Part shown: piece by piece, positions 1,309 through 63,909 of the stretch | Numbering within the stretch: the stretch's first letter is position 1 | How the letters are laid out: every line of letters starts with the position of its first letter | Source: Eledone cirrhosa | Taxonomy: Eukaryota | Direction of reading: 5' to 3' | Length of the DNA stretch: 64,000 nt | Assembly (NCBI GenBank): GCA_964016885.1 | Contig: OZ024745.1 | Span: forward strand, 42,656,001 to 42,720,000 | Program-made: the position numbers and the translations under genes | The notes under the pieces: model-generated | Told to the model about the DNA's origin: nothing | Databases searched by the model: none | What the model saw: the letters and a program-made list of their open reading frames with translations, nothing else

Positions 1309-1686
1309 GTAGGAGGTGAGTTTTATTGTAGTACAATAAAGCAATGCAGATATCGGATAAGAAGCACTCTACAGTTTGTAGGACTGGAGTATACATAATA
1401 TATAAGATCAAAAGATGGTTAAAAGAGTTCCATATATTTTATTATGCGCATTTCAAAAACAAATATCATCATGCAATAATATTTGTGTTTTCATCAGATA
1501 AAATAGGAAGACATGAATATGTTGATATGTTGATTTAAAACTGCACTATTCACAAGTGTTTTTTAACCTTCATATCATGTCTTCCTATTTTATCTGATGA
1601 AAACACAAATATTATTGCATGATAATATTTGTTTTTGAAATGCGCATAATAAAATATATGGAACTCTTTTAACCATCTTTTGATCT

Positions 1687-18790: not shown

Positions 18791-18855
18791 TATTTTGTCT
18801 GATGAAGACATACCATAATTTAACTTGGTATCCTTGAAATATATATAATGAAATA
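18791..18855 (+). ncRNA. Type I hammerhead ribozyme in a (TA)n-embedded insert (18715-18895)
   Basis: TATTTTGT-CTGATGA-AG..ATACCA...TGGTAT..TT-GAAA-TATATA-TA-ATGAAATA. Confidence 0.75.
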
Positions 18856-18941: not shown

Positions 18942-19400
18942 TAGAAGGGGTATTTAATTTGTTGGAAGTCCAACAAATATAAATGTTTATAACTGATTTA
19001 GAGCACTCAACAGTTTACTGGAGTAAATATTCAATGATATTAAATAAATGGAAACTATATTTATAAAACCATATTTATTTTATTATATATATTTCAAGGG
19101 TACCAAGACACATTGATACGCTTTCATCAGAAAATACAAAGTTTGTTTTATAAATAGAGACTACCCATAAAAATCCTACTTTATCGGTTGGAAATTCACT
19201 GGATAGTTCACTGGATAATTCACTATCCAGTGAATTTCCAACCGAAAAGGTATGATTTTCATGGGTATGTCTCTATTTATAAAACAAACTTTGTATTTTA
19301 TCTGATGAAAGCGTATCAATGTGTCTTGGTACCCTTGAAATATATATAATAAAATAAATATGGTTTTATAAATATAGTTTCCATTTATTTAATATCATTA
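18940..19400. mobile_element. (TA)n-embedded insert with ~170-bp inverted arms and two hammerheads
   Basis: ~19034-19206 is the reverse complement of ~19223-19399; same family as 18715-18895 and 49608-49875. Confidence 0.8.
19294..19356 (+). ncRNA. Type I hammerhead ribozyme (inverted copy at ~19076-19136, minus strand)
   Basis: TATTTTAT-CTGATGA-AAG.GTATCAA-tgtgtc-TTGGTAC.CTT-GAAA-TATATA-TA-ATAAAATA. Confidence 0.85.
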
Positions 19401-22749: not shown

Positions 22750-23030
22750 CCCCACCACCACCAACATCATCCAGTCTTGTCAGATCACCCGCATCGTTCA
22801 CTAAAGAGCACCACTTCCATATTCACCACACCGCCACCTTCACCATACCGCCACCACTGCCGCCATCGTCACCACTGCCAGCAGCACCAGCACCACCTGC
22901 ACCACCTGCACCACCACCACCACCACCACCGTAGTACCACAACCACTACCACCACCACCACTACCACCACCCCAACCATCACAACCACCACAGCTATACC
23001 GCCACCACAACCACCACCACCATTACCACT

Positions 23031-23062
<32 letters not shown>

Positions 23063-23518
23063 AGCACCACAACAATCACAACAACCACAACCACCACTAT
23101 ACCACCGTCACCACTGCAGCCACTACCACCACCAACAACAACACCGCCACCACGACCGTGGCACCACAACCATCACAACCACCACGATACCTCCACCACC
23201 GCCACCATCACCAGGGCCAACACCAACAACAACAATGAACACCACAACCACAACCACCACCGCCTCCACTGTACCACCACCGGCGACACCATCACTACTG
23301 CAGCCACCACCACCATGACCGTAACACCACAATCACCATAACCCTCACCATGCCGCCACCACCGCCACCGTCACCACTGCCAACACCACCAACACCGTCC
23401 CACCACAACCACAATGACAACCACCACCACCACAACTGCCAACACCAACACCACCACCACCACCACAACCACCACTACGACCACCACCACGACCACCACA
23501 ACCGCCACAACTGACAAC

Positions 23519-23549
<31 letters not shown>

Positions 23550-26500
23550 CCACCACTGCCAATACCACCACCACCGTCCCACTATACCCACTACAACAAC
23601 AACACCCTGCCATCACCACAACCACTACCGATATCATCAACACCAACACCAACACCACCACCATCACCAGACACACAACACCACCTCCATCACCACAACC
23701 ACCACTACAGCCGCCAACGCAGCAGCAGCTCTAACACCATTTCTTTCAACCAAAGAGCACATCACTAACACCAATAACACCACCAACACCAATAACAACA
23801 CCAACACCAACACCACCACCACCACCAACACCAAAACCAAAAACAACACCAACACCAACACCAATACCACCACCAACACCAACACCAATAACACCACCAA
23901 CACCAACACGAATAACACCACCAACACCAACACCAACACCAGTAACAACACCAACAACACCAATAACACTACCAACACCAACACCAATAACACCACCAAC
24001 ACCAACACCAATAACACCACCAATAACAACACCAATAACACCACCAACACCAACACCACCAATAACAACACCAATAACACCACCAACACCAACACCAATA
24101 ACACCACCAACAACAACACCAATAACAACACCAACAACACCAATAACACCACCAACAACAACACCAATAACACTACCAACACCAACACCAACACCACCAC
24201 CAACACCAACACCAATAACACCACCAACACAAACACCACCACCAATACCAACACCAATAACACTACCAACACCAACACCAATAACACCACCAACACCTAC
24301 ACCACCACCACCACCAACACCAATAACACCACCAACACCAAAACCAACACAAACACCGACACCAACACCACCACCACCACCAACACCAATAACACCACCA
24401 ACACCAACACCAGCACCAATAACAACACCAACAACACCAATAACAACATCACCACCAACACCAACAACACTACCAACACCAACACCAACACCAATAACAC
24501 CACCAACAACAGCACCAATAACACCACCAATAACACCACCAACACCAACACCAACACCACCACCAACAGCAACACCAATAACACCACCAACACCAACATT
24601 AATACCAACACCAACACAAACACCACCACCAACACCAATAACACCACCAACACCAACACCAACACCAACACCACCACCACCACCAACACCAATAACACCA
24701 CCAACACCACCACCAACATCAACACCACCACCAACACCAACACCAACACCAACACCAATAACACCACCAACACCAACACCAATAACACCACCAACAACAA
24801 CACCAATAACACCACCAATAACAACACCAACACCACCACCAACACCACCACCAACACCAACATCAACACCACCACCAACACCAATAACACCACCAACACC
24901 AACACCAATAACACCACCAACAACAACACCAATAACACCACCAATAACACCACCAACACCAACACCAACACCAACACCAACACCAACACCAACACCAATA
25001 ACGCCACCAACACCAACACCACCACCAACACCAACACCAACACCAACACCAACACCAACAGAATAACACCACCAACACCAACACCAATAACACCAACAAC
25101 ACCAACACCAATAACACCACCAACACCAACACCAATAACACCACAAATAATAACACCAATAACACCACCAACACCAACACCAATAACACCAACAACACCA
25201 ACACCAATAACACCACCAACACCAACACCAATAACACCACCAACACCAACACCAATAACACTACCAACACCAACACCAATAACACCACCAACACCAACAC
25301 CAACACCAATAACACCACCAACACCAACACCAATAACACCACCACTACCAACACCAACACCACACCAACACCAACACCAATAACACCACCAACACCAACA
25401 CCAATAACACCACCAACAACAACACCAACACCACCACCAATAATAACACCAATAACACTACCAACACCAACACCAATAACACCACCAATAATAACACCAA
25501 TAACACCACCAACAACAACACCAATAACACCACCAACACCAACACCAACACCACCACCAACACCAATAACACCACCAACACCAACACCAACACCACCACC
25601 AACACCAACACCAACACCACCACAACACCAACACCAATAACACCACCAACAACAACACCAATAACACCACCAACACCAACACCAATAACACCACCAATAA
25701 TAACACCAATAACACCACCAACAACAACACCAATAACACCACCAACACCAACACCAATAACACCACCACCACCAACACCAACACCACCACCAACACCAAC
25801 ACCAATAACACCACCAACAACACCACCAATAACACCAACCAACACCAACACCAGCACCAACACCAACACCAATAACACCACCAACACCAACACCAATAAC
25901 ACTACCAACACCAACACCAATAACACCACCAACACCAACACCAACACCAATAACACCACCAACACCAACACCAATAACACCACCACCACCAACACCAACA
26001 CCAACACCACCACCAACACCAACACCAACACCACCACCAATACTAACACCAATAACACTACCAACACCAATAACACCACCAACACCAACACCAACACCAA
26101 TAACACCACCATCACCAACACCAATAACACCACCACCACCAACACCAACACCAATAACACCACCAACACCAACACCAATAACACCACCAACACCAACACC
26201 AACACCACCACCAACACCAATAACACCACCAACACCAACACCAACACCAACATCAACAACAACACCAACACCACCACCAAAACCAATAACACTACCAACA
26301 CCAACACCAATAACACCAACAACAACAACACCAACACCACCACCAACACCAACACCAATAACACCACCAACACCAAAACCAATAACACCACCAACAACAA
26401 CACCAACACCACCACCAATAATAACACCAATAACACTACCAACACCAACACCAATAACACCATCAACACCAACACCAACACCAACACCAACACCAATAAC

Positions 26501-27275
26501 ACCACCAACACCAACACCAATAACACCACCACCACCAACATTAACACCAATAACACCACCAACACCAACACCAATAACACCACCAACACCAACACCAACA
26601 CCACCACCAACAACACCACCAATAACACCACCAACAACACCACCAATAACACCATCAACACCAACACCAACACCACCACCAACACCAACACCAATAACAC
26701 CACCAACACCAACACCAACACCACCACCAACAACACCACCAATACCACCACCAACACCAACACCAATAACACCACCAACACCAACACCAACACCACCACC
26801 AACAACAACACCAACAATAACACCACCAACACCAACACCAACACCACCAACACCACCAACAACACCAACACCACCACCAACACCAACACCACCAACACCA
26901 CCAACACCAACACCAATAACACCACCAACACCAACACCAACACCACCACCAACACCAACACCAACACCAACACCAACACCACCAACACCACCAACAACAA
27001 CACCAATAACACCACCACCACCACCAACACCACCACCAACACCAACACCAACACCAACACCAACACCACCAACACCACCAACACCAACACCAATAACACC
27101 ACCAACACCAACACCAACACCACCACCAACACCAACACCACCAACAACACCAATAACACCACCAACACCACCAACACCAACACCAATAACACCACCAACA
27201 CCAACACCAACACCACCACCAACAACAACACCAACAATAACAACACCAACACCAATAACACCGCCAACAACAACA
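22750..27275. repeat. ~4.5-kb ACC/AAC/AAT triplet-based array (ACACCA, AATAACACCACC motifs)
   Basis: Plus strand is almost only A and C; regular from ~23765; register shifts near 25060, 25360 and 25840. Confidence 0.95.
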
Positions 27276-27505
27276 CACAGCACCGACAATAACAATAATA
27301 TCAGCAGCAGGAACAGCAGCAACAACAACAGCTAATGTTGCATTAAAATAAAGATGATATATATGTCAGCATTGTGCAACATACATACACACGCACAAAC
27401 GCACAGACACACACATACAGACACACACACGCATACATACACAGACACACATTCATACATACACATATATATATATATACACATATACATATACACACAC
27501 ACACT

Positions 27506-32643: not shown

Positions 32644-32986
32644 TATATACAAAGAATCTCCACATGATGCCTTTGACACTAATAACAACTATGTACACTA
32701 AATGTTCTAAATGACTAGGATTCTAGTTACACGTTTTCGACATTCCTTATGCTCCGATGGTTCCAGACTTCCCTCTGGAAGAAACAATTGTCAGCTTATA
32801 AATGTTCTAAACTAAAATTGGTCGTTTTAACACTTTATATATATATAGCGGCGATGAATTAGCTTTGCGAGGTTTTTTATATGAAATCGTGTGTCGAAAC
32901 AAATATTGTTATACTTGGGGATTATTAATTCTGGCAATATTACACAAATATGACCCTCCCCTAGTATAACAATATATATATATACA

Positions 32987-33828
32987 TTTGCGCTAACAAT
33001 ACAACAGAACAAATACGAATAAATAAGGAAAATATGTTTATTCAAAAATATAGACCAGCATTAAATATGGTTTAATATACATTATGTCATAACATGCTAC
33101 CAATCCAAACAGACGCACACACATAACACCTGCTACTTTAGAAAATAAAAACTAAATAAACCTTAACATACGTTTGCGCTGACAATACAACAGAACAAAT
33201 ACGAATAAGTAAGGAAAATATGTTCATTCAAAAATATTCCTACTAAAGGAATCATTTTCCTACACACACACACACACACAATATATATATATTCTCTTCA
33301 TCTTAACATGCTAACCATACTCCCACACACATAACACCCATACACACCACACACATAACAACCCCCACCCCATACACACACAACTCCCTCCCCCATTTCT
33401 ACTAATAGAATCACTTTCCTACACACATATATACACACACACAAAATGTATATATTCTCTCCATCTTAACATACTCCCCCCCAGACACACACACATAACA
33501 CCCATATACACACACACACAACTCCCTCCCACATTTCTACTAATAGAATCATCTTCCAATACACACACACACACGCACACAAGCACACACACAAGCACAC
33601 AAATAAACATACACATCTTTACTTGTATACTATCTTTTGCTTGTCATAAAATTCTCTAAAAAGGCTACAGAATAGATTTCTAAATAAGGGCGCGAAAATT
33701 TAATGAAAACTTGTTCACGTGACAACCATAATTTCATTTATAACCAATCAAATTACGTTTATTAAAAAAAGCCTTCGTGAGCCCCTTTTTTTAAGTAAAA
33801 AGAAATTCAAACGCACATACACACACAG

Positions 33829-49607: not shown

Positions 49608-49872
49608 GATATTAACAAATGGAAACTATATTTATAAAACCATATCTATTTTATTATACATATTTCAAGGATACCATGTTAAATTATGGTATGCTTTCAT
49701 CAGACAAAATACAATATATACCAGTTTTATAAATAAATATTGACATACCCTTTCAAAATGCAACCGTTAGTTTTGGAAGACATCAGGATATCCAAATATT
49801 TGTCGAGTGCTTTATATCAGTTATAAAAATATTTGCTTGTTGTATCCCAACAATTTAAATAGAACTTTTGCA

Positions 49873-58000: not shown

Positions 58001-58399
58001 GCTGTTGCTTTGCATTGCGTTCGTAGCGGGAAGGCAATTCGTATTCATAGTTCGTATTTGTAGGATTCATGGAAGAAGTCTCATGGGAGTAGGGAATTCA
58101 CAAGCTTTCCCCAAAAAACCCGCATGTATATCCCGAACGAGGGGAAAAAAACGTCCTGTTTGCCGCAGATTCTCCACAGACGCAGGGACAGAAACGACCC
58201 GAAGCCGCCGTTTACCGGAACAGACACCTCTTGGATTTTCACCAGAGCCCCTTTTTCCGGGTTGCGGCCTTAATACCGCTGGGTGTCAGACCAATCTGCC
58301 TTGGGTGGCCCTACCAGGAACCGAAGTTCCCGACGGCACAGCTCTGACACTACCCGTTGCCACCGCCCTGCCACGTTGAGGAGGGGTTGGACTTTAGGT
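55004..58399 (-). mobile_element. Near full-length RTE-clade LINE (APE plus RT), frameshifted
   Basis: LRMACWNVRTL; VIAVYAPT; NQIDYILV; NYRGISLID; QGGFRPGRGCVDQIF; FIDFAAAFDSV; GVRQGCALSPTLFN; LAYADDIV; RLRWFGHAAR. 3' tail (TAAG)n; candidate target-site duplication (TSD) AGTCCCATCTC at 54993-55003 and 58512-58522. Confidence 0.95.
55030..58048 (-). pseudogene. RTE ORF (AP endonuclease-reverse transcriptase) broken by about 4 disruptions
   Basis: Pieces 57860-58048, 57480-57800, 55903-57435 and 55030-55896 join into one APE-RT protein. Confidence 0.9.
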
Positions 58400-58532
58400 T
58401 GTCTCATCTCATTAGTCGACTTTAGGTTGTCTCATCTCATTAGTCGACTTTAGGTTGTCTCATCTCATTAGTCGACTTTAGGTTGTCTCATCTCATTAGT
58501 CGACTTTAGGTAGTCCCATCTCATTAGTTGAC
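58390..58532. repeat. 28-bp tandem repeat (5 copies) at the LINE 5' junction
   Basis: GACTTTAGGTTGTCTCATCTCATTAGTC starts at 58390, 58418, 58446 and 58474, with a variant at 58502. Confidence 0.95.
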
Positions 58533-62615: not shown

Positions 62616-62651
62616 GAAAAAAAAAAAATATATATATATATATATATTTAT

Positions 62652-63721
62652 GATAAATTGAAACAAAATGAAAACGAAATTTCATTTCTCACTCTTAGTA
62701 TGGCACTTACTTAAATGTAAGTATGCATGTATACGTACATACATATATGTATACAGACGTACAGTAGCATGCACATATATATATATATATACATATATAC
62801 ATACATATGCATACAGGTACACATACATATATGCACGTATCAGTTTAGCGGCGCTAACGTCGCTTTGTTCGTTTGTAAACAAACTGAACAGCCTGAATTT
62901 ATGCCATACGGTGTTAAGGCAACCACGTCACCTTTTTGTTCAACACTGACACAGGAACGATGTACTAGTTTCAAGCTTGTTAGCTATCATCAGCACCGTT
63001 TACCCATCTGCCAGATAGTTGAACGTTCGAAAGTATATACTTTCCTTATGAAAATTAACGGCTGAGCAGCCTAATTTGCATATTGAGTGAGTTAAATCGG
63101 TCAGGCATACCGAAAACGATAAATTGAAACAAAATGAAAACGAAATTTCATTTCTCACTCTTAGTATGGCACTTACTTAAATGTAAGTATGCATGTATAC
63201 GTACATACATATATGTATACAGACGTACAGTAGCATGCACATATATATATATATATACATATATACATACATATGCATACAGGTACACATACATATATGC
63301 ACGTATCAGTTTAGCGGCGCTAACGTCGCTTTGTTCGTTTGTAAACAAACTGAACAGCCTGAATTTATGCCTGCTCAGCCGTTAATTTTCATAAGGAAAG
63401 TATATACTTTCGAACGTTCAACTATCTGGCAGATGGGTAAACGGTGCTGATGATAGCTAACAAGCTTGAAACTAGTACATCGTTCCTGTGTCAGTGTTGA
63501 ACAAAAAGGTGACGTGGTTGCCTTAACACCGTATGGCATAAATTCAGGCTGTTCAGTTTGTTTACAAACGAACAAAGCGACGTTAGCGCCGCTAAACTGA
63601 TACGTGCATATATGTATGTGTACCTGTATGCATATGTATGTATATATGTATATATATATATATATGTGCATGCTACTGTACGTCTGTATACATATATGTA
63701 TGTACGTATACATGCATACTT
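62652..63721. mobile_element. Young retrozyme-like element: 1.5 tandem copies of a 466-nt monomer plus an inverted 0.75 copy, in (TA)n
   Basis: 62652-62905 matches 63118-63371 (period 466); 63371-63721 is the reverse complement of ~62718-63069; copies look identical by eye. Confidence 0.88.
63440..63484 (+). ncRNA. Intact minimal type I hammerhead ribozyme (identical copy at 62956-63000, minus strand)
   Basis: AACGGTG-CTGATGA-T[AGCT-aaca-AGCT]T-GAAA-CTAG-TA-CATCGTT: 7-bp stem I, GUA triplet, palindromic stem III. Confidence 0.88.
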
Positions 63722-63909
63722 ATATATATTTATGGATTTATATTTAGAAATACTTATACGAGTACTATATTATTATATATATAGATAGAGAGAGTGACAA
63801 ACATAAAGTTTTGTGTCCATTTCTGTAGAATAAATTTAATATTAAGACTTTCCATTGGTGTCTCCAACCATGGTGACAACAATTGATTACTAAGCTACTT
63901 CCCACCATT

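Follow-up and report, generated by a model that had tools for sequence, protein, structure and literature searches.

A young head-to-head retrozyme insertion in Eledone cirrhosa, probably the work of a Penelope-type enzyme

Near one end of a 64,000-nt stretch of the Eledone cirrhosa genome (assembly GCA_964016885.1, contig OZ024745.1, positions 42,656,001 to 42,720,000; hereafter the window), a 466-nt unit with a hammerhead motif is repeated in tandem and then inverted. Which template and which enzyme would leave such an arrangement? The initial annotation of this DNA proposed run-around reverse transcription of a circular ribozyme RNA. On re-examination the 466-nt period, the strand switch at 63371, and the intact internal hammerhead are all present. 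The insert is real, neither chance nor a one-off assembly error, as the same architecture at dozens of other loci confirms. It belongs to a known class, the animal non-LTR retrozymes. We consider it likely that this is a young insertion of such an element into (TA)n, made in trans by a Penelope-type reverse transcriptase (RT) with a GIY-YIG nuclease, probably from a circular 466-nt RNA.

Anatomy of the insert

Self-comparison of the window gives an exact period of 466 nt: positions 62652-62905 equal 63118-63371, with 100% identity over 254 nt. The reverse complement of 62718-63069 is exactly 63371-63722; mismatch begins at 63723, with flank through 63728. Read in the sense of the ribozyme, the two arms diverge from the junction. 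Positions within the unit are given as phases, phase 1 being the base directly 3' of the ribozyme cut.

62652..63371, minus strand: left arm, 720 nt or 1.55 units; 5' end at phase 58, long 3' end at phase 311
63371..63722, plus strand: right arm, 352 nt; 5' end at phase 360, short 3' end at phase 245
63371, no strand: head-to-head junction of the arms; 1 nt common to both
62652..63117, minus strand: complete 466-nt unit, 36% G+C
62652..62717, minus strand: tail of ~60 nt at one end only, with a small hairpin at 62666-62687
62718..62840, minus strand: TA/TGTA-rich self-complementary segment; predicted long hairpin directly 5' of the short start site
63184-63306 and 63600-63722: further copies of the TA/TGTA-rich segment
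63440..63484, plus strand: type I hammerhead, predicted cut after GUA at 63477
62956..63000, minus strand: type I hammerhead, predicted cut between 62963 and 62962
62639..62652, plus strand: left copy of the likely 14-nt target-site duplication, a TA tract with TTTATG at its end; 1-nt overlap with the element
63721..63734, plus strand: right copy of the likely 14-nt target-site duplication; 2-nt overlap with the element

The sequence TATATATATTTATG, present at both 62639-62652 and 63721-63734, is the likely target-site duplication, a feature missing from the initial annotation. The longest ATG frame in the insert has 112 aa and crosses the microsatellite; tblastn with RT/GIY-YIG proteins finds no match in the insert. 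The RT plus GIY-YIG reading frame that an autonomous Penelope-like element requires is absent from the insert and from the retrozyme loci examined. The folding z-score of the unit is -9, probably owing to the self-complementary microsatellite, and is given no weight in the argument.

The hammerhead ribozyme

The hammerhead combines a 7-bp stem I, CUGAUGA, a 4-bp stem II, GAAA, a palindromic 2-bp stem III, and GUA. A U-U mismatch lies at the base of stem II; axolotl HHR_Amex2 is described with the same mismatch and a stem III of 2 bp. Rfam returns no hammerhead match at the gathering score (HH9 scores 18.5 bits where 52 are required), so the identification depends on motif and conservation. Rfam microRNA matches in the window were rejected as microsatellite noise. 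An active ribozyme core is absent from the predicted minimum-energy fold of the unit, linear or circular.

Variation was read from 93 copies found through a downstream motif, each identical to the window ribozyme at no fewer than 34/45 positions. Core positions are invariant in at least 89 of the 93. Three of the four common variants preserve the structure: N7 (54 T, 39 C), loop 2 (62 C, 28 T), and a stem I change from G-U to A-U (69 G, 21 A). The fourth, at the outermost base of stem I (61 T, 30 A), breaks that pair in 61/93. Conservation of the core thus points to selection for cleavage. Each tandem unit, in the arrays and loci examined, carries one type I hammerhead. Ribozymes of the type with a palindromic 2-bp stem III are described as active in dimeric form in PMC4209133 and PMC7229834.

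Hammerhead-like motifs of a different family, with an AT-rich stem I and a longer stem II, lie elsewhere in the window: at 1594-1648 (plus strand) and ~1443-1497 (minus strand), which form a close inverted pair, and at 18799-18847 (plus), 19302-19348 (plus), and ~49655-49703 (minus). Motifs of this other family also occur at loci L121, L126, L132, L135, and L189.

A large and partly young family

The initial annotation saw here a recently copied, mobile RNA unit bearing a hammerhead, a view supported by thousands of copies, young near-identical ones included. In the 3.0-Gb genome, a ribozyme 30-mer has 10,692 exact matches (its reversed control has 0), the 22-mer directly 3' of the cut has 15,642, and a 33-mer of the young subfamily has 4,466. 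The loci studied are a regional sample: the first 100 matches listed per pattern, all from contig C1, and a single neighbouring stretch of C5. They are ~75% to 100% identical to the window copy.

The units are short, non-coding, low in G+C, arranged as dimers to multimers, dispersed, and high-copy. Animal non-LTR retrozymes (PMC7229834; bioRxiv 10.64898/2026.07.22.740005) share these traits: their tandem units are non-coding, have <45% G+C, and contain a single type I hammerhead each; they form dimers to multimers, exist in thousands of copies, and occur in genomes with Penelope-like elements. Their target duplications, when present, exceed 4 bp, and the likely one at the window locus has 14 nt. 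At 466 nt, the unit is slightly above the 150-450 bp given by Cervera and de la Pena 2020 (PMC7229834) and within the 51-972 bp given by Li, Clavereau and Pollet (10.64898/2026.07.22.740005). Unlike the retrozymes of those accounts, as far as their accessible text extends, it has its own microsatellite hairpin. Members of the class are described as self-cleaving and as expressed in monomeric linear and circular RNA; the evidence for the 466-nt family comes from DNA sequence.

The further suggestion, that the microsatellite seeds new target sites, gains slight support: a foreign insert is present in 6/265 copies (a seventh match was a false call, and 10 copies gave no clear reading), and none of the six is the 466-nt element itself. 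A largely palindromic element of ~190 nt lies in TA tracts (L031:4272-4490; also L038, L049, and L203), once inside the retrozyme's own microsatellite. At L049 and L075, ribozyme-like anchors stand 590-591 nt apart and differ by ~30% from the 466-nt unit, possibly as a second repeat family.

Twenty public runs (X1-X20, with 16 organism labels) contain 39-100% of the unit's words. Four were compared with the unit: X2 yields 5,097 short contigs and X4 15, and the family is thus in other DNA; X23 and X1 yield none. The X2 and X4 contigs contain no insertion ends and no empty site, and none is informative on the window locus; no RNA is listed among the runs that share the unit's words. A wider spread of the family across species is possible.

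Two fixed 3' ends, strictly paired

The 3' ends of the copies form two groups, a short one at phases 245-252 and a long one at phases 305-311, both leading into (TA)n; the 5' ends spread across the whole unit. In a genome pattern search, the exact junction of the long end with (TA)n occurs 816 times, versus 4,829 for the read-through form. The initial annotation had expected permuted starts and varied ends around the 466-nt circle. Once homologue ends are mapped, that expectation holds for the 5' ends; the 3' ends are fixed at two sites. Copying therefore starts at fixed 3' sites and stops variably, and free permutation is true of the 5' ends only.

Among 91 loci there are 47 head-to-head insertions, of which 18 have unreadable ends. 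Both ends are readable in the other 29, and every one pairs a short end with a long end (29/29, P about 4e-9 against 50:50); the window's own short end, part of this set, was read directly from the sequence. Forty further loci were chosen by their long end. Thirty of these have an inverted arm, which ends short in 26, long in 0, and is not readable in 4. Three apparent long/long pairs were rejected: at L082 and the window the ends had been misplaced, and at L218 the arm ends short and an older fragment follows.

In young copies the arms overlap at their junction by 0-5 nt; a few junctions hold filler pieces. Target duplications are found at 8/29 loci versus 11% of mismatched pairs, a test blurred by the repetitive (TA)n target, so that duplication is not demonstrable family-wide. 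At 16/22 loci each arm finds its nearest match in its partner across the junction, ahead of every arm from elsewhere; the other 6/22 are young near-identical copies, which do not discriminate. Gene conversion after insertion could also account for arm-to-arm identity.

Reverse transcription through the ribozyme cut site, another element of the initial annotation, is evident in 57/90 arms, mostly from young loci, which cross the site; about nine in ten passages continue through it. This count supersedes one in which 85/100 copies reached at least 45 nt upstream through the cut, made on a sample blind to ends at phases 4-24. The 5' ends are enriched ~3-fold in phases 1-30 (16 seen, 5.6 expected, P 2e-4, the bin having been chosen after looking). 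This profile covers 52 loci, 12 of them fetched earlier through other motifs. The excess near the cut may mean that copying stalls on the ribozyme helix, or that the template was a linear RNA already cleaved there.

Arrays and the nature of the template

The multimers that a run-around would produce are present, reaching ~15 units in one arm (6,937 nt) at L171, an inverted array of ~4 + 15 units (G000:C1:69577000-69586999). In 14/21 arrays of at least three full units, no substitution is confined to a subset of the units; in 7/21, such substitutions are present. The 34 arrays of at least two units carry 20 different fixed signatures. At L175, one private 476-nt variant occupies all six full units in both arms, and L212 has 10 identical units. 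Together with L035 and L174, these arrays look like repeated copying of one monomer. Other arrays (L171, L173, and L053) are mosaic, and at L171 the same series of three unit variants appears repeatedly in each arm. Since one monomer circle cannot yield them, mosaics call for a multimeric template, a switch between templates, or conversion at a later time. Homogeneous arrays thus favour a circular monomer, and the mosaic ones (7/21) argue for multimers in some cases. From these patterns we infer a circle, which for homogeneous arrays is somewhat ahead of a linear multimer; circular and multimeric templates probably both occur.

The alternative that survives best keeps the same enzyme and dual priming but takes as template an uncut, linear read-through transcript of a tandem array, the ribozyme being unneeded for mobility. 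Such a template would accommodate the mosaics with unit variants common to both arms at L171, L173, and L053, and the excess of 5' ends just 3' of the cut; and ribozyme-dead RNA inserted normally in vitro, where unprocessed RNA was the main substrate, according to PMC11167929. However, internal priming cannot lengthen an array beyond its source, whereas 20 fixed signatures in 34 arrays imply repeated passage through one unit followed by re-expansion. Conservation of the ribozyme core across subfamilies also counts against it. We regard a purely linear template as unlikely, though deserving of serious attention.

A model for the inverted arms

On the preferred reading, with a probably circular template, tandem transcripts would be cut by the ribozyme, probably as a dimer because stem III has only 2 bp, and the cut monomers would be ligated into circles. 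The enzyme would make a staggered cut, of ~11-14 nt, in a (TA)n tract. Each of the two DNA 3' ends would then prime cDNA on the same template, at ~phase 250 and ~phase 310; at the window, the top-strand end at 62652 would prime at the long site and the bottom-strand end near 63721 at the short site. Each cDNA would follow the unit round to a variable extent, the pair would be joined head to head at 0-5 nt of microhomology, and repair would leave the target duplication. The initial annotation had instead pictured a single run-around with a flip like the inverted termini of Penelope-like elements. The likeness to Penelope inversions stands; two separately primed arms fit better than a single run-around.

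A more specific proposal, in which a Penelope-type enzyme dimer would use two dedicated sites of a single circular ribozyme RNA to prime both target strands, with two rounds of copying under way on it simultaneously, is offered tentatively, with rather less than even confidence. If true, it would account in one step for the tandem arrays, for the head-to-head arms, and for the tail that Penelope-like insertions carry on one side, and it would tie animal retrozyme circles to the Penelope-type enzyme. There is biochemical precedent in Frangieh 2024 (PMC11167929): the Penelope-type protein studied there cut each of the two strands and extended both, initiated at a pair of internal positions flanking the tail, prefers AT-rich DNA, and is predicted to dimerise.

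Could the inversion have arisen differently? A single cDNA or RNA might fold back or prime itself, or twin priming of the L1 type might begin at an internal site reached by chance. A fold-back or self-priming origin has been proposed for Penelope (PMC3846280), and a few junctions in this family are near-palindromic (L037, L041, L057, L217, and L224). Most junctions, however, join unrelated phases, such as 58 with 360 in the window. Twin priming with a 48-nt loss fits the window coordinates, taken on their own, but was dropped because both outer ends are fixed, one of each kind, unlike the outcome of chance internal priming. For most copies this group of explanations is largely refuted, and it strikes us as improbable overall.

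Penelope-type elements of the genome

Elements with RT and GIY-YIG domains are many: 150 of 10,595 GIY-YIG candidates were scored, and 20 long frames fall into about six families. Pfam finds RVT_1 with GIY-YIG in four of the six representatives, RVT_1 only in one, and GIY-YIG only in one. In three representatives a CxxxxCxxC precedes the nuclease, which fits Neptune/Nematis as described in PMC8557442, a comparison by description rather than by tree. In three of the families the elements meet (TA)n at one or other of two sites, which lie ~40-60 nt from each other; hammerhead-like motifs stand shortly upstream in two of these three. The 466-nt family thus shares its target and its end pattern with autonomous elements of the same genome.

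Long Penelope-type frames run from stop to stop at L116:1775-5062 (plus strand, 1,096 aa) and L117:3809-6622 (minus strand, 938 aa). The L117 family has protein copies 96-98% identical and a variant hammerhead core; it is a candidate enzyme donor. Two short C-terminal fragments of the same RT/GIY-YIG family, with ~83% protein identity, lie in the window at 32980-33237.

Sequence common to the unit and autonomous elements was found at 0/70 GIY-YIG loci (of the 10,595 candidates), and the best local alignment of the unit with such loci is equalled by 13/200 shuffles. None of ~140 loci has a retrozyme copy joined to an RT frame; apparent links at L038, L083, and L127 were rejected as separate insertions parted by TA tracts. 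These results bear on another origin, in which an autonomous Penelope-like element would have shed solo terminal repeats that unequal exchange then multiplied in place as minisatellites. Such a source has been proposed for vertebrate retrozymes (bioRxiv 10.64898/2026.07.22.740005), and unequal exchange could explain the mosaics. Against it, the arrays are dispersed, with fixed 3' ends into (TA)n; long multimers stand on both arms of fresh inversions at near-zero divergence; and no copy at the loci examined is joined to an RT frame. We hold this account to be quite improbable for the arrays, slightly more so than fold-back or twin priming; a remote origin of the unit from a terminal repeat is possible. 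An assembly artefact at the window locus, whose arms are 100% identical and which was read from the assembly, is very improbable, given that the structure obeys a family-wide rule, is shared by older diverged loci, and is flanked by a target duplication.

Relation to known systems

GIY-YIG Penelope-like elements, as described in PMC8557442, PMC3846280, PMC11167929, and PMC4209133, resemble the 466-nt family in many respects: 5' truncation, partial tandems, and a head-to-head inverted copy; a tail at one end, a hammerhead inside the repeat, and internal start sites; AT-rich or (TA)n targets with target duplication. Unlike them, as there described, the 466-nt family is without an RT/endonuclease frame and has a tail of ~60 nt rather than 30-40; nor has it homology to the autonomous families sampled in this genome. 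MRC1 and other Chlamys elements (PMC8557442) are likewise non-autonomous, multi-copy, and head-to-tail, and are attributed to a Penelope-like enzyme. The 466-nt unit differs from them in that they resemble autonomous partners at their 3' end and their group lacks canonical hammerheads.

The circular-RNA idea is already in print for the retrozyme class; the contribution of the 466-nt family is an unusually clean footprint that ties a retrozyme to Penelope-type dual priming. PMC7229834 proposes that circles give rise to tandem cDNA and names Penelope-like elements as strong candidates for this; PMC4209133 proposes the circle-to-tandem-cDNA route for Penelope-like elements themselves; and 10.64898/2026.07.22.740005 derives retrozymes from Penelope elements as non-autonomous forms, arguing from their co-occurrence and from similar terminal repeats, and leaves the mechanism open. 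The inverted copy, the one-sided tail, and target duplications of 8-10 bp are described in PMC8557442 and PMC3846280, the latter favouring self-priming. Fixed paired 3' ends and head-to-head arms are not described for retrozymes in the accessible text of PMC7229834 or 10.64898/2026.07.22.740005, and the openly available papers searched yielded no account of the 466-nt family or of strict short/long pairing in retrozymes.

Retrozyme movement and the origin of tandem and inverted Penelope insertions are called open questions in 10.64898/2026.07.22.740005, PMC8557442, and PMC11167929. Thousands of young copies, private haplotypes, and strict short/long pairing together form a statistical footprint of the mechanism. 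The 466-nt non-coding unit also offers a minimal RNA with which to run the in vitro Penelope assay that already exists, so that two points are directly testable: circle versus linear multimer, and one start site per strand.

Two further repeats were noted in the window: a CAC-rich tandem array of 4.4 kb at 22870-27284, and a near-perfect 28-nt tandem repeat at 58390-58529.
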